A stretch of 64,000 nt of DNA from Candidatus Hydrogenedentota bacterium (GCA_963674865.2 CAXXYE010000003.1:26373-90372), one strand, 5' to 3'; positions 7,708-58,464 are shown, counted from the first letter of the stretch. The notes: generated by a model from the letters alone, not told the origin. Made by a program: numbers and translations.

Positions 7708-7713
7708 TAAACT

Positions 7714-22186: not shown

Positions 22187-22276
22187 AATCCTGTTATCCC
22201 GTCCAAGAAGAAGCAAAAAGCGGGCACTGGCGCAAGCGAAGTCCGCCTCAGGCGGACGAAGACGTGTCTTTTCGCT
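22187..22276. repeat. Dispersed repeat family R2, copy a
   Basis: AATCCTGTTATCCCGTCCAAGAAGAAGC ... hairpin GTCCGCC-tca-GGCGGAC, then GAAGACGTGTCTTTTCGC. It is homologous to 31921..31986 and to the 52311..52745 block. Confidence 0.8.
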
Positions 22277-22373: not shown

Positions 22374-23465
22374 ATGCACGCCAACTGGATGGATAATTCC
22401 TTGATCAGCACGGACGAGATACAAAGCTGGCTCAGCGAGGAGGAGCCAGCGCGGCTGGAGACGCTCTGGCGGCGGGCGAACGCCGTGCGCCGGGAGTGCG
22501 TGGGCGAGGAGGTCCACCTGCGCGGATTGATCGAGTTCTCGAACTACTGCGCGCGCCAATGCGCCTACTGCGGACTCCGCGCTCCCAACAAGGCCGTGGA
22601 ACGCTATCGCATGACGCAGGATGAGGTGATGGACTGCGCCCGCCAGGCCGTCCGCTACGGCTACGGAACCGTGGTGCTGCAATCAGGCGAAGACTACGGC
22701 ATCACCGGGGAATGGATGGCGGAGGTGATCCGGCGCGTCAAGGCGGAGACGCCGCTGGCCATCACGCTCAGTCTGGGCGAGCGAAGCGACGCCGATCTCC
22801 GCCTCTGGCGGGAGGCCGGGGCGGACAGGTACCTCCTGCGGTTCGAGACGTCCAACAGGCGCTTGTTCGACATCATCCATCCGCCGCGCGCGGGCGAGCA
22901 CTCCGATCGGGTGGCCATCCTACGCACCTTGGCGGAACTCGGCTACGAGGCCGGCAGCGGCGTCATGCTCGGCATTCCCGGACAGACGTATGACGATTTG
23001 GCGAGGGATATCGCGCTGTTTGCCGAACTGGACTTGGACATGATAGGCGTGGGGCCGTTCATCGCCCATCCGGGCACGCCGCTCGGCGAGGCCGGGGCGG
23101 AGGGGCAGGCCCCTGAAGGCGAGCAAGTCCCCAACACCGAGCTGATGACATACAAAGTCGTGGCCCTCACGCGGCTGGCATGTCCCTACACGAACATCCC
23201 GAGCACCACGGCGCTGGCCACCCTCAACCTCGCGACGGGCCGCGAGAAGGGCCTCGAACGCGGCGCGAACGTGGTGATGCCGAATCTCACGCCCCCCAAG
23301 TACCGCCTGCTCTATGAGATCTATCCCTCCAAAGCGTGCATTCACGAGACGGCGGGCGAGTGCCATCGCTGTATGACACGCCGTATCGAATCCATCGGCC
23401 GCACCGTCGGCAAAGGCCGCGGGGACTCGCCCAACAAGCTGCGCAGAATGACGGCGGTGAAGTAG
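22374..23465 (+). CDS. hydE: [FeFe]-hydrogenase maturase HydE (radical SAM, BioB-like)
   Basis: IEFSNYCARQCAYCGLRAPN radical-SAM cluster, VVLQSGEDYG, GADRYLLRFETSN, GSGVMLGIPGQTYDDL and DMIGVGPFIAHPGTPL all follow the HydE pattern. ATG 22374 is chosen because the upstream part of the track ORF merely translates repeat R2. Confidence 0.85.
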   Translation: MHANWMDNSLISTDEIQSWLSEEEPARLETLWRRANAVRRECVGEEVHLRGLIEFSNYCARQCAYCGLRAPNKAVERYRMTQDEVMDCARQAVRYGYGTVVLQSGEDYGITGEWMAEVIRRVKAETPLAITLSLGERSDADLRLWREAGADRYLLRFETSNRRLFDIIHPPRAGEHSDRVAILRTLAELGYEAGSGVMLGIPGQTYDDLARDIALFAELDLDMIGVGPFIAHPGTPLGEAGAEGQAPEGEQVPNTELMTYKVVALTRLACPYTNIPSTTALATLNLATGREKGLERGANVVMPNLTPPKYRLLYEIYPSKACIHETAGECHRCMTRRIESIGRTVGKGRGDSPNKLRRMTAVK

Positions 23466-23492
23466 CCTCGCCTCTCGGCAACCGTGCCGTCC
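23404..23492 (+). repeat. Left copy of an 89-nt direct repeat (hydE 3' end plus 27 nt downstream)
   Basis: It aligns without gaps to 25561..25649. The first 59 nt match at 43/59, and the last 30 nt (TAGCCTCGCCTCTCGGCAACCGTGCCGTCC, 23463..23492) are identical. Confidence 0.9.
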
Positions 23493-23608
23493 CCCATCTA
23501 TTTCCAGAGTCGCGAACGCTATCCAACTCCACTTCTGGCCCTCAACTCACCAATGAGCCAAACAGCGAGTGCGAGAATCTCTGCGAAACTTCTGCAATAC
23601 CATCCCCC

Positions 23609-23757
23609 TTGCCTCCGTGCCATGTCTGCCTTATACTGTGCTATCATCAGGACGCGGAAACTGGCGGCAATAGCCTAACGTCCTGTAAAGAAAGGCTTTA
23701 TGGGAGTTCCGTCGGGGGTCTTATACCGCGATGGCCCGGCCCAGAGGTCTAATAAGG
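23609..23757 (+). promoter_or_regulatory. Conserved upstream module, copy C (promoter P plus E3 core)
   Basis: TTGCCT-17-TATACT (23609..23637) matches 52793..52821 at 26/29. The E3 core CTGTAAAGAAAGGCTTTATGGGAGTTCCGTCGGGGGTCTTATACCGCGATGGCCCGGCCCAGAGG (23683..23757) is homologous to 53029..53098 and 54480..54548. Confidence 0.6.
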
Positions 23758-23792
23758 AAGCCATATGAACGTTGTTCGAGCAAGAGGACTAA

Positions 23793-24581
23793 TGGAATCT
23801 TCATGAACGAGCCTTCCCGCGTTTCTGGGAGATATTCTTCGAGGTCTTCGAAGCCCTGCCCAGGCAGGGCCCCGGCAATCGTGACTGCGCCGTAAGAGCG
23901 CTCCGTTTTTGCGAAGGGCTCCCGCATGCACCGGCAGTCCTCGACCTGGGCTGCGGAGTTGGTGGACAAACCTTGCAGCTCGCCGAACTCACATCGGGCT
24001 TCATCACAGCAATCGACAGCCATGCTCCGAGCATTGAACGTCTCAAGAAGACTCTCGCCGCGCGAGGTCTCTTGCAGCGCGTTCAGGCGCAGGTTGGCGA
24101 CATGGCGCATCTAGAGCTGTTGCCGGAAAGCTTCGACCTTATCTGGTCCGAAGGCGCGCTGTACAACATCGGGATTGGTAACGCCCTGCGCACCTGTCAC
24201 GGCCTGCTGCGGCCCGGTGGCTACCTCGCTTTCACCGACGCGGTCTGGCGCAAGGACGACCCACCACCCGAGGTCAAAGCGATCTTTGAGTACCCGTCCA
24301 TGGGGTGGGCCGATGATATCGTGGCGGCGACACAAGACTGCGGATTCGAGCTGGTTGGGCACTTCACACTTCCTGACGAAGCGTGGTGGGTCGATTTCTA
24401 CACTCCTATGGAGACTCGCATCACGGAGTTGCGTGGCAAGTATGCCGACGATGTTGAAGCCTCAACCATACTCGATCAACTCAGCCAAGAGCCTGAAATG
24501 CATCGCAGATATTCGGACTTCTACGCCTATGAGTTCCTTGTGGCACGTCGTCCCCTTGCGCAATCGGGCGGCCGGGATTAG
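23793..24581 (+). pseudogene. Class I SAM-dependent methyltransferase, start region apparently disrupted
   Basis: Motif I VLDLGCGVGGQT is encoded at 23937..23972, upstream of the TTG picked by the ORF track. The frame is open from 23793 (WNLHERAFPRFWEIFFEVFEALPRQGPG...) but contains no ATG or GTG. The nearby ATG 23803 is in another frame. Confidence 0.55.
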
Positions 24582-24650
24582 TAAAGGACTTGAACAGGGC
24601 GCTCCAGCGGGGCGAAGCCGCTGGACCTCGATCGTTGAGAGGGTGGTAGA

Positions 24651-25544
24651 ATGAAGATCGTCGCGGACTGGCACATCCATTCGCAGAATTCGTGCGATCA
24701 AGCTTGCATGACTCTTGCCGACCTTGTCGCCGAGGCCGACACCAAAGGCATCCGTGATTTGGGCCTTACGGATCATCTGCACACGCCCTACAACCTGCCG
24801 GATGTTGCCAAATCCCGAGCGGAATTCCTCTCTATCGGGCCTTCTCCCCGTTTCCATTTTGGCATCGAAGTAAGCTGTGTGTCGCAGTGGGAGCTTGAGG
24901 AAATAGCACGTGGAGAGTACCAAGATCCCACCTACGGGTTGCGCTCAGGAGGCCGAGCCGGGTGCGAATTGGCCATCGGGATCACGGCGGAACATATCCG
25001 GGCCTATCAGATCGAATATGTCGTTGGCGGCACACACTGGCCCCTGTACGTTCCCATGGAACGCCAAGCCGTCATCCGGGATTATCACCGACAAAACATG
25101 TTTCTGGCGACGCATCCGCTCGTGGATATTGTCGCCCATTCCTGGTGGTGGATGGGACATTGGCAGGACAGCAACGGGGACTACCCGGCCGAGCCCTGGT
25201 TTGACGATTTTGGTGTGATTCCCTGCTCGATGCACAATGAGTTTGCCGCCGCAGCGGCGGAGTCCGGCACGAAGGTGGAAATCAACATTGGGGCCAACCT
25301 CCTCAATCCGCATTATCCCGAGAGGTTTGTCGCCGCATACTTGGAGTACCTGTCAGAACTGCAATCGCAAGGAGTCTGCCTCAGCATCGGTTCGGACTGT
25401 CACTCCGCTCACTATGACGTCGATTTCGACAGGGCCGCTCACATGTTGGAAGGTGCAGGAATCATTGATGACTTCTGGTGTCTTGGGCCGAGAACAAACG
25501 AGAACAGGGCTGCCAAGAAGCCAAATGCACGCGACGGCTCATAG
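24651..25544 (+). CDS. PHP-domain metal-dependent phosphoesterase
   Basis: MKIVADWHIHSQNS ... GLTDHLHTP ... VVGGTHWP ... VAHSWW ... IGSDCHSA is the PHP/histidinol-phosphatase-like His/Asp pattern. GC is lower than in the flanks. Confidence 0.7.
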   Translation: MKIVADWHIHSQNSCDQACMTLADLVAEADTKGIRDLGLTDHLHTPYNLPDVAKSRAEFLSIGPSPRFHFGIEVSCVSQWELEEIARGEYQDPTYGLRSGGRAGCELAIGITAEHIRAYQIEYVVGGTHWPLYVPMERQAVIRDYHRQNMFLATHPLVDIVAHSWWWMGHWQDSNGDYPAEPWFDDFGVIPCSMHNEFAAAAAESGTKVEINIGANLLNPHYPERFVAAYLEYLSELQSQGVCLSIGSDCHSAHYDVDFDRAAHMLEGAGIIDDFWCLGPRTNENRAAKKPNARDGS

Positions 25545-25649
25545 CCGCGCGTGATCCGCGGCGTCGGCAAGGACCGGGGTGATTCCTCCAACAAGCTGCG
25601 AAAAGCGTCGGCCGTCAAATAGCCTCGCCTCTCGGCAACCGTGCCGTCC
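25545..25649 (+). pseudogene. Remnant of a hydE C-terminus plus the right copy of the 30-nt core
   Basis: It starts directly after the PHP gene's stop and reads PRVIRGVGKDRGDSSNKLRKASAVK*, versus the HydE end IGRTVGKGRGDSPNKLRRMTAVK*. The core at 25620..25649 is identical to 23463..23492. Confidence 0.8.
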
Positions 25650-29691: not shown

Positions 29692-29784
29692 TCGTGACTA
29701 AGCCGCCAGCGCTGCTGGTGGGAATCGACACGGCTTTGCCGTGCCGGCGTTTCTTTCTGACGGGATAACGGGATGTGCCCAAAT

Positions 29785-30036
29785 CCGGAGGCTCGAAGCC
29801 CGCGCCGCAATATGCAGGCTGGAAGCCTGCGCCACAATACGCAAGCCGGAAAACCGCTCCACAATCCGGAGGCTGGAAGCCTGTGCCACAATAGGGCCCT
29901 TCTCTGGACTTTGGCGAGCGCGCCGGAGATTGTAGCGCAGGCATCTTGCCTGCCGGAGATTGTGGTGCAGGCATCCTGCCTGCCTTCGGCGCGCGTGCTT
30001 GGGATGCAGGACCACGCCCACCTGCGGATTCTGGGA
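29785..30036. repeat. Dispersed hairpin-repeat family R1, copy b (internally tandem)
   Basis: 3-4 units of GGAGGCTSGAAGCCYGYGCCRCAAT (hairpin GCAGGCT-gga-AGCCTGC). 2 units of CCGGAGATTGTRGYGCAGGCATCYTGCCTGC (hairpin GCAGGCA-tcc-TGCCTGC). Then GGCGCGCGTGCTTGGGATGCAGGACCACGC...GCGGATTCTGGGA. Confidence 0.85.
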
Positions 30037-31836: not shown

Positions 31837-31920
31837 GTGCCTATCTCCTTACGCTACAGGTTTCTACTGGTGTGCGTCATCCTGATGGGCCATTATCAGA
31901 GAAGGACGCGCAAGCGTAGC

Positions 31921-31986
31921 AAAAAAAGGACTGACGCATGCGAGTCCGCCAAAGGCGGACGAGACGTGTCTGTCCCTTTTCTTGCG
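31921..31986. repeat. Dispersed repeat family R2, copy b
   Basis: AAAAAAAGGACTGACGCATGCGA-GTCCGCC-aaa-GGCGGAC-GAGACGTGTCTGTCCCTTTTCTTGCG, located between the TM1266-like gene and hydG. Confidence 0.8.
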
Positions 31987-39617: not shown

Positions 39618-41384
39618 ATGGCGACCCTGGACCCGAAAGCTATGGCCGACTGGGAAATTGCGGAAGCCGCCTCCGAGCATATGAAGACGGTGACGCAACT
39701 CGCCGGGGAAATGGGACTCGATCCCATCGAGCTGCTGCCCTATGGCCACCACGTGGGCAAACTGGATTTTGGCCGAATTCTCGATCGTTTGGCTGATCGG
39801 CCCAACGGGAAGTACATCGAGGTTACCGCCATCACGCCCACGCCTCTGGGCGAAGGGAAATCAACTACCTCGATGGGCCTAGTGCAGGGGCTCGGCCGGT
39901 TGGGCAAGAAGGTCATCGGCGCCATACGGCAACCTTCCAGCGGGCCGACCTTCAATATCAAAGGCTCGGCCGCGGGGGGCGGACTCAGCCAGTGCATTCC
40001 ATTGACGGATTTCAGCCTCGGACTAACTGGGGACATCGACGCCGTTACCAACGCCCACAACCTCGCCATGGTGGCCCTTACCAGCCGCCTCCAACATGAA
40101 TACAACTATGCCGACGCGGTGTTGGAGAAGAAGGGCCTCAAACGCCTCGACATCGATCCGAGAAACATCGCCGTCGGCTGGTGCATGGATTTCTGCGCTC
40201 AAGCGCTTAGAGAAATCGTCATCGGCATGGGCGGCAAGATGGACGGCTTCATGCTGAAGAGCGGATTCCAGATCTCCGTTTCCTCGGAGGTGATGGCCGT
40301 GCTCGCCGTCGCCACCAGCCTCGCGGATCTGCGGCAGCGTCTCGCCAAGATTGTTGTCGCGTATGACAAGGCTGGAAATCCTGTGACGACGGCGGACCTC
40401 GAAGTCGACGGGGCCATGACGGCCCTCATGAGCAAGGCCATCAATCCAAACCTTATGCAGTCCATCGAGGGCCAGCCCGTTCTTGTTCACGCCGGCCCCT
40501 TTGCCAACATCGCCATCGGCCAGTCCTCCATCATCGCCGATCGGGTCGGCCTCAAGCTCGCCGACTACCACGTCACCGAAAGCGGATTCGGTGCGGATAT
40601 CGGCTTCGAAAAGTTCTGGAACCTGAAGTGCCGCTTCAGCGGCCTCGTGCCCAACTGCTCCGTCATTGTGGCCACGATACGGGCGTTGAAGATGCACGGC
40701 GGCGGGCCGAAGGTCGCGCCGGGCAAGCCGCTTGACAGGGCCTACACGGAAGAAAACGTCGAACTCGTTGAAAAGGGCGCCGAGAACCTGATCGCCCATA
40801 TCGAAACGGTAAAGAAGAGCGGGATTCCTGCCGTGGTGTGCATCAACCACTTCTACACCGACACGGATGCTGAAGTGGCGGCGGTTCGCAAGGCCGCGGA
40901 GGCGGTTGGGGCTACCGTGGCCGTCTCCAAGCATTGGGAGAAGGGCGGGGAGGGCGCCGTTGAACTCGCGGAGGCTGTAGTGGCTGCGTGCGAAACCGAG
41001 CCCAACTTCCAATTCCTCTACGAGAGTGGAATGCCTCTCAAGGAGAAGATCCGCCGTATTGCGACGGAGGTCTACGGCGCGGATGACGTCAGCTACTCGC
41101 CGGATGCCGAAGCGATGGTACGGCAGGTCGAGGCCGATGATGAACTGAAGCAACTGGGCACCTGTATGGTGAAGACCCATCTCAGCCTTTCCCACGACCC
41201 GAGCGTCAAGGGGCGCCCGAAGGGATGGACGCTTCCCGTGCGCGATATTCTGATCTACCGGGGCGCCGGCTTCGTGGTGCCGGTTGCGGGCGACATCAAG
41301 CTTATGCCGGGCACGGCCTCGGATGCGGCCTTCCGGCGGATTGACGTGGACGTTGAGACGGGCAAGGTGAAGGGACTTTTCTGA
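39618..41384 (+). CDS. fhs: Formate--tetrahydrofolate ligase
   Basis: [17 protein letters not shown]-loop, [14 protein letters not shown] and the [12 protein letters not shown]-terminal motif. SD AAGGAG is 6 nt before ATG 39618. Confidence 0.93.
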
Positions 41385-49564: not shown

Positions 49565-52288
49565 ATGCTTACAAGTGCTTCCTATGCGGGCGTCATGTTC
49601 GGCGTGCTCCTGGCCGCCTTCGTGAGCGCAGCGGCGGACGACGCCTTCCCCGGCGTCGAATGGGAACAACGCGAGCCGGGCGCGCTCGGCCTCGACGGCG
49701 CTGAGTTGGACGAGGTGGCGGCACGCCTAGGAGGCCGCGGCTGCGTCATCAAGGACGGCTACATCGTCAAGTCCTGGGGCGACCTCGCTCAGTCCGGCGA
49801 CTGGCTGTCATCCGCCAAACCTGTCTTGAGCACCATCCTCTTCTTCGCCATCGAAGAGGACCTCGTTAAGAGCGTCGATCAGCCCATCGCGGAATTCGGC
49901 TGGGATTTCCGCCCCAAGGACAAGGGCATCACCTTCCGCCACCTCGGCGCCATGAGCAGCGGCTATGCGCGCCCCGAGGGCCCCGGCGAGGCGTGGGCCT
50001 ACAACGACTTCGCCATCCAGCTCTATCAGAGGACCCTCTTCGACAAGGTGTTCAAAGGCGACGCGAAGGAGATCGCCGAAGCGCCCGAACGCCTCGGCGC
50101 CCTCGGCTTGCAGGATGGACTCCGATTCAACGGCAAACGCCGCATCTACGCCTCCGTCCGCGATTTCGCCCGCATCGTCTGGTTCTGGCTCAACCGAGGC
50201 AACTGGAATGGCCGTCAGGTGCTGCCCTCGCGCTATTTCAACGAGTACATGCGCCCGCAAACGCCCAAGGACCTGCCGCAAACCGCCAAGGCCGAGACGG
50301 ATGACTACCTCGGCATCGGCTCCTACGGCGGCGGCTCGGACCACTTCAGCGTCGCCGGGCCGGGCATCTACGGCTTCAACTGGTGGTTCAACGACACCGG
50401 CCGGCTCCATCCCCACGCGCTGACGTGGCCCGATGCGCCGCCGGACACCATCATGAGCCTCGGCGCGGGCGGCAATTCCAGCGCCTTCATCCCCAGCCTG
50501 AACGTGGCCCTCGTGTGCGCCCAAGGCGACTGGGGGAATGTGCGCGGTGGCGAGCGCGACGCTGAGATGAACCGCGTCCTTGGACTCCTGGCGGAGGCGT
50601 GTGGATACACGCCCGAACCTGTCCTCATCACCGGCGAACGGCGGCAATGGCGCCCCATCACGCTTTCCTTCCGGGGAGACGATCTCGCCGAAACCGGCGA
50701 ACCGAACCCCTTCACGGACTATCGCCTGAACGTCGCCTTCTCCAAAGGCGGCCGCACCCTCGTAGTGCCCGGCTTCTACGCCGCGGACGGAAACGCCCTG
50801 GAATCGGGCGGCGAGGCCGGCCCCGTGTGGCGCGTCCACTTCGCCCCGGATGAGGAAGGTGTCTGGGAGTATCGCGTGTCGTGCCGGACGGGCCCGGGCA
50901 TCGCCACCGCTTCCGAACGAGACGCCGGCCAACCTACGGCGTTCGACGGCCTCTCGGGAAGAATCGAGATCGGCCCCGCCGACCCCGCCGCGCCCGGCTT
51001 CATCGCCACGGCCACGCTCCGCCACACGGGCGGGCGCTACCTGCAATTCGCCGGGACGAAGGAGTACTTCATTAAAGGCGGCGTGGACAGCCCGGAGAAC
51101 GTGCTCGCCTTCGCGGACTTCGACGGCACCGTGCCCACCCACAAGTACGAGCCCCACGCCGGGGACTGGCGCTTCGGCGACCCCGTGTGGCACGGCGACA
51201 AGGGGAAGAACCTGATCGGAGCGCTGAATTACCTCGCCGGCAAGGGCATCAACTCGGTGTATTCACTGACGATGAACGTCGGGGGCGACGGCAAAGACAC
51301 CTGGCCCTGGATAAGCGACACGGAACACCTTCGCTTCGATTGCAGCAAGCTGGATCAATGGGATGTCGTCTTCCGCCACATGGATCGCCTCGGCCTGATG
51401 CTCCACGTCGTCACGCAGGAGCAGGAGAACGACCAACTGCTCGACGGCGGCGAACTCGGGCCGGAGCGCAGGCTCTACTACCGCGAGTTGATCGCCCGCT
51501 TCGCCCATCATCCGGCACTGGTGTGGAATCTCGGCGAGGAAAACACGAACACGCCCGAGCAGCGCCGCGCCTTCGCCGCGTACATCCGCGCCCTCGACCC
51601 CTACGACCACCCCATCGTCATCCACACCTTCCCCAGCCAACGCGACGAGGTGTACACGGACCTCCTTGGCTTCGCCGACTTGGACGGCCCCTCCCTGCAA
51701 TTGGCCGATATGCGGGAAACGCACCGAGAGACGCTGAAGTGGGTGCAACGCTCACGCGAGGCCGGCCGGCCATGGTGCGTCTGCCTCGACGAGATCGGCC
51801 CTCCGAGCGTGGGCGTCAAGTCCGATGCCGAAGACCCCGACCACGACGACGTGCGGCGCTACGCCCTCTGGGGCAATCTCATGGCCGGGGGCGGCGGCTG
51901 CGAATGGTTCTTCCAGAGCGACAACCACTGTGAAGACTGGCGCGCCCGCGACCGCATGTGGGATCTGACGCGCTACGCCCGTGCCTTCTTCCAGCAATAT
52001 CTTCCCTTCCACGAGATGGTGCCCGCCGACGAACTGGTGTCGGGCGAAGGCGCGTGGTGCCTTGCCAAGCCCGGCGAGGTGTACGCCGTCTACACGCCGA
52101 ATGCGGCGGAACTGCGCCTGGAAGTCCCCGAAGGCACATATGACGTGGCCTGGTACGATCCGCGGCACGGCGGGGCCTTGGCCCAAGGCAAGCCGATCAC
52201 CGGCCCCGGCCGCATCGCCCTCGGCCCGCCACCCAGCGACCCCGACAAAGACTGGGCCGTCCTAATCCGCCGAGCGGCCAGGCATTAG
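49565..52288 (+). CDS. Secreted multidomain protein: serine-hydrolase-like N-region (tentative) plus a DUF5060-like Ig domain plus a GH5/DUF4038-like TIM-barrel
   Basis: ATG 49565 gives signal peptide MLTSASYAGVMFGVLLAAFVSAAA. FTDYRLNVAFSKGGRTLVVPGFYAADG...WRVHFAPDEEGVWEY is a DUF5060-like pattern. INSVYSLTMNVGGDG and VWNLGEE suggest a glycoside-hydrolase-like barrel. Confidence 0.5.
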   Translation: MLTSASYAGVMFGVLLAAFVSAAADDAFPGVEWEQREPGALGLDGAELDEVAARLGGRGCVIKDGYIVKSWGDLAQSGDWLSSAKPVLSTILFFAIEEDLVKSVDQPIAEFGWDFRPKDKGITFRHLGAMSSGYARPEGPGEAWAYNDFAIQLYQRTLFDKVFKGDAKEIAEAPERLGALGLQDGLRFNGKRRIYASVRDFARIVWFWLNRGNWNGRQVLPSRYFNEYMRPQTPKDLPQTAKAETDDYLGIGSYGGGSDHFSVAGPGIYGFNWWFNDTGRLHPHALTWPDAPPDTIMSLGAGGNSSAFIPSLNVALVCAQGDWGNVRGGERDAEMNRVLGLLAEACGYTPEPVLITGERRQWRPITLSFRGDDLAETGEPNPFTDYRLNVAFSKGGRTLVVPGFYAADGNALESGGEAGPVWRVHFAPDEEGVWEYRVSCRTGPGIATASERDAGQPTAFDGLSGRIEIGPADPAAPGFIATATLRHTGGRYLQFAGTKEYFIKGGVDSPENVLAFADFDGTVPTHKYEPHAGDWRFGDPVWHGDKGKNLIGALNYLAGKGINSVYSLTMNVGGDGKDTWPWISDTEHLRFDCSKLDQWDVVFRHMDRLGLMLHVVTQEQENDQLLDGGELGPERRLYYRELIARFAHHPALVWNLGEENTNTPEQRRAFAAYIRALDPYDHPIVIHTFPSQRDEVYTDLLGFADLDGPSLQLADMRETHRETLKWVQRSREAGRPWCVCLDEIGPPSVGVKSDAEDPDHDDVRRYALWGNLMAGGGGCEWFFQSDNHCEDWRARDRMWDLTRYARAFFQQYLPFHEMVPADELVSGEGAWCLAKPGEVYAVYTPNAAELRLEVPEGTYDVAWYDPRHGGALAQGKPITGPGRIALGPPPSDPDKDWAVLIRRAARH
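52144..52190 (+). repeat. Left copy of the direct repeat flanking island 2 (inside the 3' part of the 49565..52288 gene)
   Basis: CGTGGCCTGGTACGATCCGCGGCACGGCGGGGCCTTGGCCCAAGGCA matches 56327..56373 at 41/47. Weaker homology extends ~25 nt further upstream. Confidence 0.85.
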
Positions 52289-52310
52289 CGTCGCGACTCA
52301 GGACAAGCGC

Positions 52311-52745
52311 CAAGAAGAAGCGAAAAACGGGGACTGATGCAAGCGGAGTCCGCCTCGGGCGGACGAAGACGTGTCTGTCCCTGCTTTTCACGCTTTTCAG
52401 GTGTCAAACGCGAACGTCATGCCCGCGAAAGCACAGCAAAAAAGGGACTGACGCATGCGAGTCCGCCCGCAGCGGGCGAGACGTGTCTGTCCCTGCTTTT
52501 CCAGGCGGACGCAGACGTGTCTGTCCCTTTTCTTGCGCATCCTTGTCATCCCGTCTAAGTCTTGCCGTTTTCTACGCTGCTCAGTCCTGTTATCCCGTCC
52601 AAATCTTCGGCGGGCCATGCCCTGCCGTCTTGGCTATCTATCCAATCCTGTTATCCCGTCCAAGTCTTGCCGTTTCTTGCGCAATCCTGTCATCCCGTCT
52701 AAATCTCCCCGTTTTCCACTCAATCCTGTCATCCCGTCAAAGAAC
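52311..52745. repeat. Repeat family R2 block: three hairpin units plus five tandem AATCCTGTYATCCCGTC units
   Basis: GTCCGCC-n4-GGCGGAC / GTCCGCCC-gca-GCGGGCGAG hairpins with GACGTGTCTGTCCC tails at 52311..52392, 52436..52500 and 52503..52537. ATCCTGTYATCCCGTC-type units near 52540, 52583, 52643, 52683 and 52722. Confidence 0.85.
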
Positions 52746-52792
52746 CTCACTACACGCCCACCGGGCAACACCCCCCGTGTCGACACAACCAC

Positions 52793-53135
52793 TTGCCCCC
52801 GTGCCATGTCTGCGCTATACTCTCCTGCCATCGGAATGGGGAGGAAGAGGGGACATGTTCAAAGCGCCGTCTTCGGCGCGACTACCTGTCACCTTTTCGG
52901 GCCATCCTTTGAACCGGGGCGGCAAGGGCCTCAGGAGCCCCGTGGATGATCGGTAGAGGGGAGAACGAAGGAGCAGTACACAAAGGCCATACATCCCCTG
53001 AGGCCATTGCCGGACATGGCTTAATATATTGCAAATACAGGCTTTAGGCCAGCGTTTCCGGAGGAGCTTTATGCCGCTTTCGCCCGGCCCGAAGACGGGT
53101 CGCGCATCACTTGGCAGCCATTGGGGGAGGTACGA
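52793..53135 (+). promoter_or_regulatory. Conserved upstream module, copy A (promoter P, long leader, E3 core, SD plus uORF)
   Basis: TTGCCC-17-TATACT at 52793..52821. GGGGAGAACGAAGG at 52958..52971. E3 core TTGCAAATACAGGCTTTAGGCCAGCGTTTCCGGAGGAGCTTTATGCCGC at 53029... It is homologous along its length to 54224..54617. Confidence 0.6.
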
Positions 53136-53139
53136 ATGA
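53071..53139 (+). CDS. Candidate 22-codon leader uORF, translationally coupled to the downstream gene
   Basis: GGAGGAG SD is 5 nt before ATG 53071. It encodes MPLSPGPKTGRASLGSHWGRYE. Its TGA overlaps the ATG of the 53136 gene (ATGA). The ATG context TATGCCGC is conserved in copy B. Confidence 0.3.
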   Translation: MPLSPGPKTGRASLGSHWGRYE

Positions 53140-54167
53140 GGAGCCTGCGAACTATTGCTAACGAGGTCAATCGCGCGGCGAGCGCCTACCGCATGGGTGA
53201 GTTCCAGCTCATTCGCCAGCGCATCCATGGACTTTCCCGGTCGAAGACGCGACAGATATTCACGGCTCAGACAATAAGGGACACATATGCATTTCACTCC
53301 GGCGGCCGGAAAGAGATCCAGTTCAATATCGGTTTCGAGGGTGACGCCAAGGAGTATCTGCGATACGGGCTGGCGTTCTCGCTGGAACCAAGCCGGACGC
53401 TCCCTGAGCCACTGATGCTCAAGCCGAAGATCCTGAGGCTGAATGAATACATCAGCACGAACTCGTCGGAACTCGATGATCTGCGATTTTGGTACTACTT
53501 CAACGAGGACAGAAGCCCCTCCCGTCCCGTGACTCCGATTGCTGAGGCGCTGATCCGCAAGCGCACGTTCCTGTTCTTAGGAAAGATGTCGCCACGCGAG
53601 ACGGTGCAGTCCCAGGAGATTCTGTTCCTGTTCGATCGCCTACTCTCAGCATATGAGTACGTGGAAGGCAACACGCCCCTACCGAAAACGCGGACAGATC
53701 TGCGCAAGGGACTTCAGTTCAAACCAGGTTGCTCCGAGAAAGCGCCTGCGTCAGTGCGTCATCCCGGCACCATGACGAAGTCTGTTACGCTTCGGCACAC
53801 TGAGCTTGAGAAGGCCGTCTACACTATTCTCTTGCAGCGCCATGGAGAGGAGAACGTCGGGACGGAGAATGACACAGGCCGGGGCTCGCGAGTGGACTTG
53901 GTTGTGCGGGATGGCAAGCAACACATCTACTATGAGATCAAGACAAGTCCAGACATCAGGACCTGCCTGCGCGAGGCAATTTCGCAGCTTCTAGAGTACT
54001 CGTATTGGCCCGGCGGCAACGAGGCCACCGCTCTGGTCGTTGTGTCGGAGAATCCCATGACACACGACGCACGGAGATATCTGGCCACACTCAGGAATCG
54101 CTTCAATATCCCGATCTACTACCGGTATCTCGAGATGGGATCAGGCACACTTGGGAAGCATGAATAG
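53136..54167 (+). CDS. Hypothetical protein with a C-terminal PD-(D/E)xK nuclease-like domain
   Basis: C-terminus GSRVDLVVRDGKQHIYYEIKTSPDIRTCLREAISQLLEY fits the D...(D/E)xK...Q restriction-endonuclease-fold motif. The N-terminal ~230 aa were not recognised. ATG 53136 is preceded by GGGGGAGG. Confidence 0.5.
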   Translation: MRSLRTIANEVNRAASAYRMGEFQLIRQRIHGLSRSKTRQIFTAQTIRDTYAFHSGGRKEIQFNIGFEGDAKEYLRYGLAFSLEPSRTLPEPLMLKPKILRLNEYISTNSSELDDLRFWYYFNEDRSPSRPVTPIAEALIRKRTFLFLGKMSPRETVQSQEILFLFDRLLSAYEYVEGNTPLPKTRTDLRKGLQFKPGCSEKAPASVRHPGTMTKSVTLRHTELEKAVYTILLQRHGEENVGTENDTGRGSRVDLVVRDGKQHIYYEIKTSPDIRTCLREAISQLLEYSYWPGGNEATALVVVSENPMTHDARRYLATLRNRFNIPIYYRYLEMGSGTLGKHE

Positions 54168-54223
54168 GGACAGCCCCAACATCGACCTTCAGGCCAGAAG
54201 GCCAGCGCGGATCGGGGCCATTC

Positions 54224-54617
54224 TTGCGCTGAGGTCAGGCATTGTATCGTGCTGAAAGGAAGCGTCCCAACTAAGAAACACTATCCGCTTTGCGGCCTGG
54301 ACTACTATGGCGGGACTCAGGACTTCAGGTGGTACTCACAGATGGTGATTCCTGTGGGCCAATCGGTGGCGCAAGGGTGTCAAGAACCCCGAGAACTATC
54401 TGCAACGGGGAGAACGAAGGGCCACTAGTACAGACGCCGTCTGTCTGTCTGTGTCCATTGCACAGCATGACTTAATGCTCTGTAAATAAAGGCTTTGGGC
54501 CAGTCTTGCCGAAGGGGTCATATGCCGCAATCGCGCGCATCGAGCGGGCGTCCTCCGTCCGTTGAGCCGCCGCCGGGCCGTTCCCCTATTGAAGAGAAGA
54601 AGGGAATCTGATACATC
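54224..54617 (+). promoter_or_regulatory. Conserved upstream module, copy B
   Basis: Degenerate P (TTGCGC-15-TATCGT, 54224..54250). GGGGAGAACGAAGG at 54407..54420. E3 core CTGTAAATAAAGGCTTTGGGCCAGTCTTGCCGAAGGGGTCATATGCCGC at 54480... The distance from the GGGGAGAACGAAGG box to the uORF ATG is 115 nt, versus 113 nt in copy A. Confidence 0.6.
54522..54611 (+). CDS. Candidate 29-codon leader uORF ending 6 nt before the endonuclease ATG
   Basis: GAAGGGG SD-like box sits before ATG 54522. It encodes MPQSRASSGRPPSVEPPPGRSPIEEKKGI and is positionally equivalent to the uORF in copy A. Confidence 0.3.
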   Translation: MPQSRASSGRPPSVEPPPGRSPIEEKKGI

Positions 54618-55355
54618 ATGTCCATGGAACCTGAGAGCATACTCCACGATCTGACCCGTCGCACAGGCCAGGCCGTTGCACACTACTGGAGGACGCGAAC
54701 CGGACAGCAAGACCGGCAACGCCAGACAGGCAAGGCTGACCAGGGATTGCGCAGCGCCGTAACCGGCGGCGCTCAGATGGATGGTTTCATCGACCTCTTC
54801 ACGGAACTCATCGTAGCGACTGGGATTCCCGAGCGTTGCGTCTTCCGGAAGAAGGCCGTTGAATTGCCGGGATTCTTCCGTCCCACCAAGGAATGGGACC
54901 TGCTCGTCGTACGGGAGAAGACGCTGCTGGTTGCCATCGAGGCGAAGTCTCAGGGCGGGCCGTCGTTCGGGAACAACTTCAACAACCGAACCGAAGAGGC
55001 GATGGGAAGCGCCCTCGACTTATGGACTGCCTATCGGGAGCGCGCATACCTTGATAGCCCCCAGCCCTTTCTCGGCTACTTCTTCATGCTGGAGGATTGC
55101 CCCTTGTCCAACCGCCCCGTCAAGGTCAGGGAGCCGCATTTTCAGGTCTTCCCCGAATTCCTTGGCGCATCATACATGCGGCGGTACGAGGTATTCTGCC
55201 GCAAGCTCGTGCTGGAACGTCACTACACTGCGGCAGCGTTTGTCTCATCCACGGCAACCGACGGCATCCAGGGACATTTCGCGACGCCGGCGGAGGACCT
55301 GTCCGTCGAGCGTTTCGCCAAGACCCTCGCGGCGCACGTGGCCGCCTTTGCCTAG
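54618..55355 (+). CDS. Type II restriction endonuclease, XhoI/PaeR7I-like family (recalled from memory, not searched)
   Basis: 245 aa. RSAVTGGAQMDGF ... PTKEWDLLVV ... VAIEAKSQGGPSFGNNFNNRTEEAMGSALDLWTAYRE resembles the conserved core of PaeR7I-family enzymes. A DNA methyltransferase follows immediately. Confidence 0.65.
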   Translation: MSMEPESILHDLTRRTGQAVAHYWRTRTGQQDRQRQTGKADQGLRSAVTGGAQMDGFIDLFTELIVATGIPERCVFRKKAVELPGFFRPTKEWDLLVVREKTLLVAIEAKSQGGPSFGNNFNNRTEEAMGSALDLWTAYRERAYLDSPQPFLGYFFMLEDCPLSNRPVKVREPHFQVFPEFLGASYMRRYEVFCRKLVLERHYTAAAFVSSTATDGIQGHFATPAEDLSVERFAKTLAAHVAAFA

Positions 55356-55360
55356 AGCCA

Positions 55361-56268
55361 TGGAGACCACCGTTCATAGACTCATTAACGGGGATGCCAG
55401 AGAGCTTGCATTCCTCGATGACGCGTCCGTTCATCTCGTGGTGACGTCCCCTCCCTACTGGAACCTGAAACGCTATAACGAGAATCCAGACCAGTTGGGA
55501 CACATACAGGACTATGAGGCCTTTCTGTTCGAGTTGGAAAAGGTGTGGCGGCATGTCTACCGCATACTCGTTCCCGGCGGAAGACTTGTTTGCGTGGTTG
55601 GGGATGTCTGCGTCGCCCGGCGGAAGTTCGGCCGCCATCTCGTCTTTCCTCTCCATGCCGACATCTGCGTTGTCTGTCGACGGATCGGATTCGACAATCT
55701 CAATCCGATCATCTGGCACAAGATCGCCAACGCCTCCTATGAGGTCGAGAACGGTTCGAAGTTTCTTGGGAAGCCCTATGAACCAAATGCCATCATCAAG
55801 AATGACATGGAGTTCATCTTGATGCAGCGGAAACCGGGAGGCTATCGGAAACCCACGAACGAGCAACGCGAAGCAAGCAGAATCGAAAAGGAGACATTTG
55901 ATCGCTGGTTTCAGCAGATCTGGAACATAACCGGGGCCTCCACCAAGAAGCACCCGGCCCCGTATCCTCTGGAGTTGGCGACGCGCCTTGTCCGGATGTT
56001 CTCCTTCACGGATGACACGGTTCTCGATCCCTTCTGTGGCTCCGGCACCACCATGGTTGCCGCCTTGCGAAACGGGCGCAACAGCATCGGGATCGAGATC
56101 GATCCCGACTACTGCCACATGGCCGCCCGCTACCTGAAGGCGGAAACGGCGGATCTTTTCTCGACAGCGGAACTTCGCTTTGAGAAGGCGCCCACCGAGA
56201 CAACTGCCATGGTGCGAGAAGACAAAGCACTGTACGAAGTACGGCCCGCCAAGAAGAAGCTCGAATAG
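55361..56268 (+). CDS. DNA amino-methyltransferase, beta-class (motif IV SPPY before motif I)
   Basis: VVTSPPYWNLKRY (motif IV) is N-terminal and DPFCGSGTTMVAA (motif I) is C-terminal. ATG 55361 is 5 nt after the endonuclease stop. Confidence 0.85.
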
Positions 56269-56326
56269 GCAAGCCATCCTGCATCGCCTTGCCACGCGGA
56301 ATTCTCCCTCATGAAGGCCCGCACGC

Positions 56327-56373
56327 CGTGGCGTGGTACAATCCACGGCATGGCGGGGCGTTGGCCCAAGGCG
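56327..56373 (+). repeat. Right copy of the direct repeat flanking island 2 (decayed C-terminal fragment of the 49565..52288 gene)
   Basis: In frame it reads ...HAVAWYNPRHGGALAQGE, versus YDVAWYDPRHGGALAQGK in the intact gene. 41/47 nt are identical. Confidence 0.85.
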
Positions 56374-56415
56374 AGGCGCGCGCGCCTCTTGGCACAGTGA
56401 AGGCAGGGATGAGTC

Positions 56416-58464
56416 ATGGCCGGTATGCTTCCGTTTCTTGCGGCGATCTCCGTTTTGGCGGCTGATGTGCAAGCCAATCCGGCTCGCGAGATCCTATTCG
56501 ATGATGATTTCAGCGGGTTGCCGACGGGCCTGCTCGGCAGCGTACTCGGCGCTCATGCGGAGTACCACTACCTGCCCGAAACGGCGCCCAAGGGCTTCTG
56601 GGGCATCACCGCGTTCCGCTCGGATCCCGGCTCGCAACGGGCCTGGCGCGTCTGTCGCGAGGATGGGCGCGCGGTGTTGGTGCAGTCCTACGAGAACACG
56701 AAGAACTACACGCATCCCATGATCATCGCGGGCGACCCGCTGTGGTCGGACTACACGATTACCGTCCGTTTCGCGCCGGAGAGCGACGCAGGCCAGAGCG
56801 GCATCATGTTCCGCTATCGGAATAACCGGTGCTATTACTTCTTCGGCGTGGACGGGCCGAAAGTCGTCCTCAAGATGGTGCGCCACGCGACCGCATTCCA
56901 CGAGCCGTACGAGGAGATTCTGGCGGAGCAGGACTACGCCTGGACGCCCGGCGAGTACCTCACGGCCGAGGTCGCCGTCGCCGGGAGCCACATCCGGGCC
57001 AAGCTCGACGGGGCCGTGCTCGAAGCCGATGACGCCACCTACACGGCGGGCAAGATCGGGCTCACATCGGACATCCCCACCCGCTTCTCACGGGTGACGG
57101 TGGAAACCACGCCCGAAGTGCGAAAGCGCATCAATACGCTCATCAGGAGCCGCGAAGCGGAGCGGGCGGCCCTCCAGGCCGAGAATCCGAAACCCGTCGT
57201 GTGGAAGAAGATCAAAACCGAAGGCTTCGGCGTGGGGCGGAATCTCCGCTTCGGCGACCTGACGGGGGACGGCCAGGTCGATGTCCTTATCGGCCAGGTG
57301 ATTCACCACGGGCCGAAAGACCGCAACAGCGAACTCAGTTGCCTCACGGCGATGACCTTCGATGGCGATATCCTGTGGCAAATCGGGGAGCCGGATCCGT
57401 GGAGAGACCACCTCACAAATGATGTGGGATTCCAGATCCACGACTTCGACGGCGACGGCCGGAACGAGGTGGTCTATTGCATGGGCTGCGAACTCATCGT
57501 GGCCGACGGCTCCACGGGCAAGACGAAGTTCAAGGCGCCGACGCCCGAATCGCCCAAAGACAGCAAGCCGCCGTACAACCGGTTTCCGCGCATCTTGGGC
57601 GACAGCCTGTATTTCTGCGACCTGCGCGGGCAGGGCCGCGCGGGCGATGTCATCATCAAGGATCGCTACCAGCACCTGTGGGCGTTGAACGACCGCTTCG
57701 AGGTCCTGTGGGACGCCGAGTGCAACACCGGCCACTATCCCTACGCCTACGACGTGGACGGCGACGGCAAGGACGAACTGGCCATCGGATACTCCCTGTT
57801 CGACCACGACGGCAAGGTCCTCTGGACGCTCGACGAGGTTCTCAAAGACCACGCCGACGGCGTCGCCATCGCGAAGTTCTCCGATGACAAGGACGCCGAG
57901 CCGAGGGTGCTATGCGCCGCGAGCGACGAGGGCATGATCTCTATCGACCTGCGCGGCAAGATCCTCAAACACCACTACCTCGGCCACGTCCAGAATCCGG
58001 CCATCGCCAATTTCCGGCCCGATAAGCCCGGCCTCGAGGCCGTTTCCGTCAATTTCTGGGGAAATCAGGGGATTATCCACCTGTTCGACGCGGAAGGGAA
58101 CGTCTATCACGACTTCGAGCCCTTCCAGCATGGAAGCCTGTGCCTGCCCGTCAACTGGGTGGGCGGGGGACAGGAGTACTTCGTGCTCTCCGCCAACGTC
58201 GAGGATGGGGGACTCTTCGACGGTTGGGGCCGGCGCGTCGTCGCATTTCCCGCCGACGGCCACCCGGACATGTGCTACGCGGTGCTGGATATCACCGGCG
58301 ACTGCCGCGACGAGATCGTCGTCTGGGACCCCTACGAGTTGTGGATCTACACGCAGGACGACAATCCCAAGTCCGGCCGCCTCTACAGACCCCGCCGCAA
58401 CCCCCTCTACAACGACTCCAATTACCAGGCCATCGTTTCACTGCCGGGCTGGACGGAAGAATAG
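56416..58464 (+). CDS. Secreted protein: concanavalin/DUF1080-like N-domain plus FG-GAP beta-propeller
   Basis: Signal-like MAGMLPFLAAISVLAADVQA. FG-GAP motifs DLTGDGQVDVLI, DFDGDGRNEVV, DVDGDGKDELAI and DITGDCRDEIVVWD. Confidence 0.55.
   Translation: MAGMLPFLAAISVLAADVQANPAREILFDDDFSGLPTGLLGSVLGAHAEYHYLPETAPKGFWGITAFRSDPGSQRAWRVCREDGRAVLVQSYENTKNYTHPMIIAGDPLWSDYTITVRFAPESDAGQSGIMFRYRNNRCYYFFGVDGPKVVLKMVRHATAFHEPYEEILAEQDYAWTPGEYLTAEVAVAGSHIRAKLDGAVLEADDATYTAGKIGLTSDIPTRFSRVTVETTPEVRKRINTLIRSREAERAALQAENPKPVVWKKIKTEGFGVGRNLRFGDLTGDGQVDVLIGQVIHHGPKDRNSELSCLTAMTFDGDILWQIGEPDPWRDHLTNDVGFQIHDFDGDGRNEVVYCMGCELIVADGSTGKTKFKAPTPESPKDSKPPYNRFPRILGDSLYFCDLRGQGRAGDVIIKDRYQHLWALNDRFEVLWDAECNTGHYPYAYDVDGDGKDELAIGYSLFDHDGKVLWTLDEVLKDHADGVAIAKFSDDKDAEPRVLCAASDEGMISIDLRGKILKHHYLGHVQNPAIANFRPDKPGLEAVSVNFWGNQGIIHLFDAEGNVYHDFEPFQHGSLCLPVNWVGGGQEYFVLSANVEDGGLFDGWGRRVVAFPADGHPDMCYAVLDITGDCRDEIVVWDPYELWIYTQDDNPKSGRLYRPRRNPLYNDSNYQAIVSLPGWTEE

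Follow-up and report, generated by a model that had tools for sequence, protein, structure and literature searches.

Chromosomal integrons are generally viewed as sedentary, only their cassettes being mobile, and some integrative elements, such as the tRNA-gene islands and ICESt1 in fda, insert into the 3' end of a gene and supply a substitute for it. Clusters of attC sites lacking an integron integrase (CALIN), for which two or more attC sites within 4 kb and the absence of a neighbouring intI are required, have an intI pseudogene remnant in their vicinity in 15 of 279 cases (Cury et al. 2016, PMC4889954). In the Treponema-type integrons, intI is transcribed toward attI and the cassettes, which is an atypical orientation (PMC3607928). 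Besides, restriction-modification (R-M) units can insert with a long target duplication, the repeated sequence being single in insert-free genomes (Furuta et al. 2010, PMC2853133), and integrase-mediated insertion at genomic attG or secondary sites moves single cassettes, target duplication being unmentioned in that work (bioRxiv 10.1101/2022.09.11.507474).

The window analysed here, a stretch of 64000 nt from a Candidatus Hydrogenedentota bacterium, contains two independent fossil integrons within 30 kb, each positioned just downstream of a host gene, with a diverged piece of this gene bracketing it. The second of them, island 2, is a low-GC block consisting of the remains of a degraded integron that carries an R-M system between two normally adjacent host genes, and a 66-nt repeat derived from the upstream gene probably marks the manner of its insertion. 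All the features of the window given below lie on the + strand.

Integron remains between two neighbouring genes

The host gene (49565..52288) is intact and encodes a DUF5060 / beta-lactamase-like / Collagen_bind_2 protein of 907 aa (Pfam), also termed glycosidase-like, which corresponds to the database protein P0001 at 100% identity, has 690 homologs in a protein search, and has a C-terminus in agreement with the family consensus in the alignment of these homologs. The downstream host gene (56416..58464) encodes an FG-GAP / DUF1080-type protein of 682 aa (Pfam). Since the two genes are direct neighbours in at least 10 related genomes, with gaps of 2-275 nt (L004, L005, L015, L018, L019, L021, L022, L023, L031 and others), the approximately 4 kb that separate them here are an insertion, as the sequence-only reading had proposed. 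No empty site was found in a close relative, the nearest host-gene ortholog being 75% identical at the protein level and non-syntenic. The lower GC content attributed to the cargo also holds (0.56-0.58 vs 0.63-0.67 in the neighbouring genes). The R2 repeat block, on the other hand, had been counted as cargo, but is a genome-wide REP-like repeat: it spans 52300..52750, combines hairpin units (GTCCGCCTCGGGCGGAC...GTGTCTGTCCC) with 39-nt units (ATCCTGTYATCCCGTC), includes terminator-like hairpins, and its family recurs in the window at 22188-22270, 29759 and 31903-31986 (31944).

Downstream of this block, a sigma-70-like promoter box, TTGCCC-17-TATACT (52793..52821), belongs to a 54-nt segment that island 1 has as well (23605-23658, 78%). 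It is followed by the last 16 codons and the stop codon of an integron integrase (HPLNRGGKGLRSPVDDR, 52903..52956), which align with intact intI 3' ends and match the intact IntI of locus L094 at 75% over 16 aa (tblastn, E 0.001, the best match in the window), although Pfam and NCBIfam give no match on this remnant. The sequence that leads from there to the first cassette, module a (52910..53120, or 53125; nhmmer E about 1e-51 to 8.9e-51), is homologous to the sequence found 3' of intact intI in L094 and L102, where it covers the attI side, from the intI stop to the start of the cassettes. A second, more diverged integrase end (NRWRKGVKNPENYLQ) with its own attI-side region forms module b (54242..54580, or 54360-54591 on the nhmmer-based span; E about 1e-55 to 8.2e-55), which is 69% identical to module a over 177 nt. 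With a pattern derived from the module, its full length of about 220 nt was detected in 13 metagenome loci (E 1e-34 to 1e-47), and in L094 and L102 its first 50 nt or so coincide with the end of an integron integrase that is intact there (TIGR02249, 497 and 480 bits for a cut-off of 265).

Each module precedes one cassette. Cassette 1 (53121..54241) consists of an ORF of 343 aa (53136-54167), a possible nuclease with 754 homologs, and of a degraded attC site (54170-54250). Elsewhere, this gene is found as a cassette with a canonical attC; its nearest homolog (77% identity) occurs in two contexts that split right after the attC GCGTT, and the attC of cassette 1 aligns with those of L083 and L084, all three sequences diverging straight after GC[G/A]TT. 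The gene is thus present as cargo, as had been noted, but its PD-(D/E)xK label is weak (Pfam Mrr_cat, E 0.033; PADLOC CARF_PDDEXK, E 0.0011). Cassette 2 (54581..56275) contains the R-M pair that had been recognized from the sequence and that both Pfam and PADLOC confirm: a predicted restriction enzyme (54618-55355; PF04555, E 1.9e-91; REase_II, E 1e-90) beside a predicted N4/N6 methyltransferase (55360-56268; PF01555, E about 3e-44; MTase_II, E 1e-66). This arrangement, together with sources that name the homologs PaeR7I, makes the pair a predicted type II system of the PaeR7I/XhoI family. The unit is 86-89% identical across many phyla, and its left border, G↓TTCCCC/G↓TTCGCC (the arrow marks the border), is common to three other contexts (L109, L111 and L113).

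The attC sites themselves are poorly preserved. A covariance model trained on 11 attC sites from this integron family recovers, with 20-37 bits, further attC sites at other loci that did not enter the training, and in the window three of its top 10 matches, at 10-19 bits, fall at cassette ends. In island 2, it finds one weak site, that of cassette 1, at 10.3 bits; after the methyltransferase gene it detects no attC (best value 3.5 bits), and 3' of the stop codon there is only the R''-box remnant GCAAGC. As far as the parts of a complete integron are concerned, the locus therefore has cassettes ending in attC with G↓TT borders and, by homology, an attI-side region with a putative attI site, whereas the intI gene is reduced to its 16-codon 3' remnant and no intact integrase occurs in either island or elsewhere in the 64-kb window. 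Judged from these homologies, island 2 is a chromosomal integron in a degenerate state and belongs to the type whose integrase gene is transcribed toward the cassettes, with two integrase-3'-end/attI-side remnants and one cassette for each.

It resembles the CALIN in having attC cassettes without a working integrase, an intI remnant nearby and non-resistance cargo mostly of unknown function. Island 2 has one weak attC site and an R'' remnant, island 1 two attC sites. Island 2 differs from the CALIN in that the attI-side module with the integrase end is doubled in tandem, in the weakness of its attC sites, and in being bracketed by a host-gene-derived direct repeat, of which no description for CALIN was found in a limited look at the integron literature. 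The likeness to the Treponema-type integrons lies in L094 and L102, where the first cassette starts within about 165 nt of the integrase stop on the same strand; the phylum is nevertheless another one, the relatives of the window being mostly Hydrogenedentota, and attI is putative here.

The host-gene repeat and its distal hairpin

The 47-nt repeat first seen between 52144-52190 and 56327-56373 (41/47 identical) is confirmed and reaches 66 nt as an ungapped match (52130-52195 vs 56313-56378, 54/66 or 82%, self-BLAST E 6e-10), with a spacing of 4183 nt and no identical run longer than 12 nt; it is the sole such pair for the host gene within the window. The in-frame peptides of the two copies, EGTYDVAWYDPRHGGALAQGKP and EGPHAVAWYNPRHGGALAQGEA, agree with those given before. 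The left copy lies within the host gene, encodes its conserved WY[ND]PRxGG motif and ends 93 nt before the stop codon at 52288, while the right copy is non-coding. Because the flanks outside the 66 nt are non-homologous (p 0.98 on the right and 0.05 on the left in Smith-Waterman comparisons with shuffles), the repeat is a discrete internal piece of the gene, and the description of the fragment as a decayed copy of the gene's 3' end could not be upheld.

That a direct repeat derived from the host gene flanks the segment thus stands, but the distal copy is not simply decayed. It is host-like in GC content (0.73) and folds into a long imperfect hairpin at -23.8 kcal/mol, compared to -13.7 for the weak fold of the gene copy. 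None of 5000 random sets of 12 substitutions reached this stability, and only 0.05% did so when matched for substitution type; on the predicted structure, 9 of the 12 actual substitutions create or improve a pair. Since a strong hairpin results from these substitutions (p about 0.0005), the copy is not decaying neutrally.

A second island of the same design and a proposed route of insertion

Island 1 (23399..25649), for which the same design had been claimed, indeed shows it: the end of a Radical-SAM host gene with the left repeat (23399-23492), a promoter box and module (23571-23781), a methyltransferase cassette (23772-24634), a PHP cassette from 24635 onward, and the right repeat (25556-25649), the two repeats being 82% identical over 94 nt. 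Its attC sites, at 24593-24636 and 25508-25570, score 10.7 and 18.8 bits, the latter belonging to the PHP cassette and being the top match of the window. It is precisely at the recombination box of this last attC that the repeat begins (GGCG↓TCGGCAA vs ACCG↓TCGGCAA in the host gene), and the distal copy, with a GC content of 0.66, retains both the reading frame and the stop codon. Its mismatches are unevenly distributed, with 0/30 from the stop codon onward, a block identical in both copies, vs 17/64 in the coding nucleotides (Fisher p 0.001). When both islands are pooled, the differences by codon position are 9:5:15, which is not significant (chi-square p about 0.07). Given the shared design, the common insertion mechanism suggested by the sequence-only reading is reasonable. 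What that reading overlooked is that both islands are degenerate integrons, each with an integrase 3' remnant, an attI-side module and cassettes with attC, which supplies a concrete recombination machinery.

Our preferred reading, which we consider about as likely as not, is that a molecule carrying the integron together with a gene end integrated within the 3' region of the host gene and brought a replacement end. From the present arrangement, we infer a circular intermediate, a crossover site and an order of events. A circular molecule would have borne the integron and the 3' terminal part of an ortholog of the host gene, and would have recombined with a site inside the 3' region of the resident gene. 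This would have been the work either of the integron integrase, using a secondary site that adjoins the last attC, or of homologous recombination in the shared gene piece. The incoming end would now complete the host gene, leaving it intact, and the displaced end of the resident would have remained past the last cassette; later, the integrase would have been lost, the attC sites would have decayed, most of the displaced end would have been deleted, and the surviving 66 nt would have turned into a hairpin. The recombination box at the start of the island 1 repeat, the reading frame and stop codon kept by its distal copy, the host-like GC content of both distal copies and, short of significance, the codon-position counts speak for this course.

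Such a course of events is reminiscent of the elements that enter gene 3' ends, in that the gene is intact, a displaced and diverged end lies at the far side, and, in island 1, the repeat starts at the putative crossover. Site-specific islands of this kind have an identical core at both ends and an integrase gene inside; the identical block measures 30 nt in island 1 and at most 12 nt in island 2. The part of the recombinase would here fall to an integron integrase using a secondary site, and the gene of this integrase is no longer present. As in attG insertion, cassettes lie outside a complete integron, and the junction of island 1 places an attC recombination box beside ordinary coding sequence; here, however, the attI-side module would move too and a repeat of 66-94 nt is present. 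Several observations weigh against the proposed circle, among them the missing empty site in close relatives and the absence of an intact integrase from the window. The displaced end of island 2 should reach the stop codon and only 66 nt remain, so that a deletion of at least about 100 nt has to be assumed. The stretch following the methyltransferase gene shows no detectable attC, and the case for a crossover in island 2 therefore leans on analogy with that of island 1 alone. Furthermore, the mismatch pattern of island 1 is not predicted unless gene conversion is added, and the REP block between the gene end and the integron remnant, which counts against the circle, implies that this block arrived later or came from a close relative.

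Alternative origins of the repeat

The leading alternative, to which we give a modest but real chance, is a long target duplication: the integron/R-M block would have inserted downstream of the gene while duplicating about 70-170 nt, and the distal copy would then have decayed and been partly deleted. R and M genes in an insert of less than 20 kb flanked by a direct repeat of more than 30 bp (here 66 nt) place the locus in the category described by Furuta et al. (PMC2853133), both repeat copies are host-like in GC content, and island 1 shows the exact L-T-insert-T-R geometry. In island 2, however, the left repeat is set apart from the insert by 93 nt of coding sequence typical of the family and by the REP block. 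The R-M pair is moreover an integron cassette accompanied by integrase remnants and attC sites, whereas the described repeats adjoin inserts devoid of any other mobility element. The published repeats are also near-identical (44/46 and 47/47, or about 95-100%, PMC2853133) vs 82% here, and neither the non-uniform divergence in island 1 nor the hairpin-building substitutions in island 2 are those of a passively decaying duplicate. These substitutions would be accounted for if the distal copy had been kept as a working hairpin, either as a terminator or 3'-end stabiliser of the R-M operon insulating the downstream gene, or as an attC-like site, made from host coding sequence, that replaces the lost attC of the last cassette. 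The copy begins 45 nt past the methyltransferase stop, where an attC is expected, and ends in GCG↓TTGGCC. Still, the hairpin is not followed by a T-tract and goes uncalled in the terminator scan, the attC model gives at most 3.5 bits and the left box has no AAC, and the z-score amounts to no more than -1.7 to -2.1 when 90-111 nt of context are included. Template-switch "correction" of quasi-palindromes is an established mutational mechanism, and acting on a latent quasi-palindrome it could yield the same pattern without selection. A working hairpin accordingly appears improbable as the explanation.

An origin of the fragment unrelated to the insertion, as the remnant of a separate paralog, which the sequence-only reading had named as the finding that would overturn it, or as a chance match, is very improbable. 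Paralogs with the same C-terminal domain do occur within 3-9 kb in L019, L021, L022 and L023, but these are 27-37% identical (about 35%) at the protein level and lie on the other strand, as opposed to 82% nucleotide identity and the above self-BLAST value for the repeat. Moreover, the fragment fits the lineage-specific residues VAWY.PRHGGALAQG of the adjacent gene better than any of the best 120 of the 690 homologs, HGGALAQG being common, among these 120, to the fragment and the adjacent gene only, and these residues led us to discard a paralog; the island 1 repeats, of the same design, argue likewise. Finally, the recurrence of a short stretch from the 3' part of the gene a few kb downstream, with scattered mismatches, recalls a diversity-generating retroelement whose template and variable repeats would act on the host gene 3' end. 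Such an element would have a reverse transcriptase, and its mismatches would be confined to A positions of the template repeat. Here, the non-coding copy has an A at just 2 of the 12 mismatches, no reverse transcriptase lies between the two copies and Rfam gives no matches on the window, so that this candidate was rejected, its likelihood being negligible.

Returning to the integration of a circle that carries a gene end, a broader generalization, which we regard as unlikely, would be that whole integron platforms, comprising integrase, attI and cassettes, leave and enter chromosomes as circles, through recombination of the last attC with a secondary site in the 3' region of the upstream gene, and that the displaced fragment is reshaped into a hairpin replacing the lost attC. 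Whole-platform mobility through the integron integrase at a secondary site was not found in the literature searched. As the circle would carry a spare gene end, it could insert into the corresponding gene of a new host and leave this gene whole. The two islands bear on how integron platforms reach new chromosomal sites and on how attC sites originate, and the integrase-end/attI module of about 220 nt, which is widespread in an understudied lineage, is usable for finding such integrons. If the repeat is merely a long target duplication, the locus is a further example of a described phenomenon; if circles do integrate, be it by the integrase or guided by homology, this would provide a route for platform mobility and explain islands at gene ends, and the reshaped fragment, if the generalization is true, would be a visible step in the emergence of recombination sites from ordinary coding sequence.

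Inserted DNA between the host gene and its neighbour

The host gene of island 2 (49565-52288) encodes a 907-aa product with DUF5060, beta-lactamase-like and Collagen_bind_2 domains, and its 690 homologs, the nearest being 75% identical, mostly come from Hydrogenedentota and Planctomycetota metagenome bins. Among species-representative genomes, 80 loci with a host-gene homolog were retrieved; in at least 10 of these, the gene directly after it, 2 to 275 nt away, is homologous to the FG-GAP/DUF1080-type gene found downstream of the island (56416-58464). The 4.1 kb separating the two genes in the window are therefore inserted DNA, as the sequence-only reading had proposed, and the lower GC content that it had reported for the island is likewise confirmed (0.56-0.58 vs 0.63-0.67 in both neighbouring genes). 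Exact-protein look-ups with the window proteins tried returned 0 contigs, the host-gene protein being present in the homolog database (P0001). L081, the locus of the closest ortholog (75%), has another gene neighbourhood and, since it is not syntenic, does not reliably polarise the substitutions. In two relatives, different genes stand between the host-gene and FG-GAP-gene homologs, namely a chemotaxis-receptor-like gene (L009, 12724-15563) and a large secreted enzyme-like gene (L012, 12700-15101), so that this intergenic position is variable in other lineages too.

The 'R2' block (52300-52750), built from hairpin units and 39-nt units, had been named among the lower-GC elements between the copies. 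As R2-type units also occur at 22188-22270, 29759-29774 and 31903-31986, the block is not island-specific cargo and belongs instead to a REP-like family of dispersed hairpin repeats of this genome. The family is made of a ATCCTGTYATCCCGTC unit plus a GTCCGCCTCGGGCGGAC hairpin, then GTGTCTGTCCC, and is amplified to a 450-nt block after the host gene. Besides, the window holds a ~66-nt tandem repeat array (74-78% identical) within a long ORF at 6893-7714, a dispersed 173-nt repeat (12595-12757 and 29863-30034, 79% identical), and, in another lower-GC stretch (39800-39905), the inverted boxes GCCCAACGGG and CCGGTTGGGC, which lie 106 nt apart in an attC-like geometry.

Cassettes and integrase-end modules

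The cargo genes of both islands are very probably integron cassettes. The 343-aa protein encoded at 53136-54167 belongs to no Pfam family and shows faint nuclease-like matches, with 754 homologs across phyla. Its nearest relative (77% identity) is found in two different contexts (L083 and L084), whose common part consists of the gene and an 80-nt hairpin site, the two diverging straight after AAGCG|TT. Canonical attC hairpins also follow the gene in other homologs (z = -5.3), and the window site 54171-54247 aligns with the attC of L083 and L084 up to the same divergence point, its box reading CATT. At 54618-55355 lies the restriction enzyme (Pfam XhoI, E 1.9e-91), which together with the methyltransferase (55360-56268) makes up a predicted restriction-modification (R-M) pair of the PaeR7I/XhoI type (54618-56268); homologs from unrelated lineages share 86-89% identity with it. 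A different attC stands ahead of the pair in three other contexts, where the part similar to the window starts exactly at G|TTCGCC, the corresponding left border in the window being G|TTCCCC at 54580/54581. After the methyltransferase stop codon, the other copies carry GCGAAC (the R'' box), where the window has GCAAGC followed by unrelated sequence.

A covariance model trained on 11 attC sites of module-bearing or cassette loci recovered sites absent from its training set with 20-37 bits (L037 14474-14548 and 13424-13490; L094 164-242; L100 3683-3748). Its best match in the window is 25508-25570, at the end of the PHP gene of island 1 (18.8 bits, E about 0.01), ranks 6 and 10 being taken by 24593-24636, after the island 1 methyltransferase, and 54170-54250, after the 343-aa gene; downstream of the R-M pair the model detected no attC (at most 3.5 bits). 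An earlier candidate for the last attC of island 1 (25586-25697, CCAACAAG...CTTGTTGG) was unsupported by a box-complementarity scan and was replaced by 25508-25570.

Each cargo gene of island 2 is preceded by a module of 177-220 nt (52910-53125 and 54360-54591, mutually 69% identical), and island 1 also has this module, ahead of its first cargo gene (23571-23781). A metagenome scan with a degenerate pattern from the module core gave 20 loci, 13 of which contain the complete module (nhmmer E 1e-34 to 1e-47). In two of them, L094 and L102, the module opens with ~50 nt that form the 3' end of an intact gene (358 or 365 aa), to which the NCBIfam integron-integrase model TIGR02249 (cut-off 265) gives 497 and 480 bits, the rest of the module extending over ~165 nt up to the first cassette on the same strand. 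The integrase gene thus points toward the cassettes, as in the Treponema integrons, whose atypical orientation has intI transcribed toward attI and the cassettes (PMC3607928). With the intact integrase as query, the only match in the window is 52903-52950 (HPLNRGGKGLRSPVDD), 75% identical to its C-terminus (E 0.001). Comparison of the short remnants with Pfam, NCBIfam and PDB gave nothing useful, and it is the intact integrases recovered from the metagenome loci that confirm their nature; the window holds remnants of the integrase and no working copy.

In island 1, the module lacks the integrase end and is accompanied by a SAM-methyltransferase cassette, which lacks an in-frame start, ATG 23803 being in the +1 frame, and by a PHP-domain cassette. 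Integrase genes with internal deletions occur in the related loci L037 and L105. In the light of these deletions, of the integrase remnants, of the cassette borders, of the weak or undetected attC sites and of the startless methyltransferase, both islands are very probably old, eroded integrons.

Several arrangements were seen alongside. The two islands have in common a 54-nt stretch (23605-23658 and 52789-52842, 78% identical) that includes a TTGCC(C/T)-17-TATACT promoter-like box; the point at which it meets the integron module differs between the islands. A further fossil integron lies beside a homolog of the island 2 host gene, immediately after a tRNA-Asn gene, on the Hydrogenedentales contig JBMNGZ010000005 (L037, 12836-15700); there, an integrase N-terminal fragment fused to the module is followed by an Mrr_N-domain cassette and a 315-aa cassette, each with an attC model match after it, and no tRNA-derived or host-gene-derived repeats were found around it. 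In L100 (2857-3195 and 4979-5312) and L108 (5354-5687 and 7471-7804), the integrase 3' end and module are duplicated over 334-339 nt (95-99% identical) inside the cassette array, ahead of a TIR-domain cassette, which could be either a real 'pseudo-cassette' or an assembly effect. Finally, a 77-nt direct repeat of L102 (5269-5345 and 12176-12252, 84% identical) flanks the intact integron together with a DNA methyltransferase gene; one copy lies in the 5' part of a 322-aa gene, and the other is a fragment with a stop codon. This repeat is located in a methyltransferase-rich region and is not a clean parallel to the islands of the window.

Gene pieces that bracket the islands

The 41/47 identities reported between 52144-52190 and 56327-56373 were reproduced, and ungapped extension brings the repeat to 66 nt (52130-52195 vs 56313-56378; 54/66, or 82%; self-BLAST E 6e-10), the copies reading EGTYDVAWYDPRHGGALAQGKP and EGPHAVAWYNPRHGGALAQGEA in the host-gene frame. 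When the flanks of the distal copy were scored against the adjoining segments of the host gene and compared with shuffled sequence, no homology was found over 37 nt to the right (p 0.98) or 44 nt to the left (p 0.05). The repeat is therefore a discrete internal piece, ending 93 nt before the stop codon (52288), and not the decayed gene end previously assumed. A resemblance that would let the fragment extend into the 5' end of the neighbouring gene (DESWPVCFRF vs DKDWAVLIRR) is judged to be chance, because this DNA is constrained by the signal peptide of the neighbour and the nucleotide flanks are without homology. Matches of 14 nt (CGCCAAGAAGAAGC, 52308 / 56247) and 9 nt (AGGCAAGCC) between the island borders are low-complexity or expected by chance, and no further 3'-fragment duplication was found 3' of host-gene homologs in 44 loci. 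An unrelated paralog remnant, which had been named as the refuting case, is excluded as source by the lineage-specific match of the distal fragment to the adjacent gene, which is unequalled among the best 120 of the 690 homologs, as is a diversity-generating retroelement by the mismatch pattern and the lack of a reverse transcriptase.

The repeat described for island 1 holds as well (23399-23492 vs 25556-25649; 94 nt, 82%). According to the attC model, the recombination box of its last cassette is GGCG|TCGGCAA (25563|25564), and the radical-SAM host gene reads ACCG|TCGGCAA at 23406|23407, so that the start of the repeat coincides with the strand-exchange point expected for an integron integrase. 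Frame and stop codon are preserved in the distal copy (VGKDRGDSSNKLRKASAVK vs VGKGRGDSPNKLRRMTAVK), and the non-repeated DNA between this copy and the next gene is presumably native. From the stop codon on, 30 nt (stop plus 27 nt) are 100% identical, whereas the coding part has 17 mismatches in 64 nt (73% identical; Fisher p 0.001). The distal copies are host-like in GC (0.73 and 0.66 in islands 2 and 1) compared to the adjacent cargo (0.56). Pooled over both islands, differences by codon position 1:2:3 are 9:5:15, a spread that tends toward what coding constraint would produce, without reaching significance (p about 0.07).

We tentatively propose, at somewhat less than even confidence for both islands, that the integron arrived on a circular molecule that also bore an orthologous gene's 3' end. 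The circle would have formed when the last attC recombined with a site within the 3' region of the gene, so that, at the predicted G|T, this attC would adjoin TCGGCAA or TGGCCTGG in the gene end; the same site in an insert-free gene would have been the circle's point of entry. Upon integration, either by homologous recombination in the shared piece or by the integrase acting on a secondary site (the insertion of cassettes elsewhere than at att sites is documented; bioRxiv 10.1101/2022.09.11.507474), the incoming end would complete the gene and the resident end would be displaced beyond the array. For island 2, the crossover, CACGCCG|TGGCG in the distal copy vs GACG|TGGCC in the gene, can be placed only by analogy; the rest of the displaced end, about 100 nt or more, would have to have been lost by an extra deletion, and the REP block between gene end and integron remnant is a further difficulty. 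The closest published description for R-M units is insertion with long target duplication (PMC2853133), which matches the geometry of island 1 and fits island 2 poorly, where the left repeat is not adjacent to the insert; it also leaves the integron machinery and the non-uniform divergence out of account. The 0/30 vs 17/64 contrast of island 1 is predicted neither by circle integration nor by simple target duplication, a short gene-conversion tract being the simplest patch. Integron identity and circle integration, stated together, stand at about even odds.

Random decay does not account for the distal copy of island 2. Folding of its single strand gives -23.8 kcal/mol (-13.7 for the gene copy), a stability reached by 0/5000 random 12-substitution sets on the gene copy, by 0.05% of substitution-type-matched sets and by 0.05% of shuffles of the distal copy. 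Nine of the 12 differences create or improve a hairpin pair, a count biased by deriving the structure from the same sequence, and the z-score with more flanking sequence is only -1.7 to -2.1. Either selection has favoured the hairpin, whose role would then be that of a transcript end, insulator or substitute recombination site, or a latent quasi-palindrome was corrected by template switching once the copy had escaped coding constraint. In terms of the selected functions, the hairpin has no T-tract, the terminator scan made no call, and the attC model did not recognise it as an attC.

Known kinds and new arrangements

We have not found described the putative tandem units of integrase end, attI-side module and one cassette, duplicates of which also occur within the arrays of L100 and L108 (334 nt, 95-99% identical), nor an apparent fossil integron bracketed by a diverged 66-94-nt piece of the upstream gene, here twice in a 64-kb window, nor hairpin-forming changes in such a distal piece. 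The constituents very probably belong to known kinds: the R-M pair to the PaeR7I/XhoI-type systems, the cargo genes to integron cassettes, and the cargo as a whole to a fossil integron that resembles CALIN, the attC clusters without integron integrase, and that would have the Treponema-type orientation.
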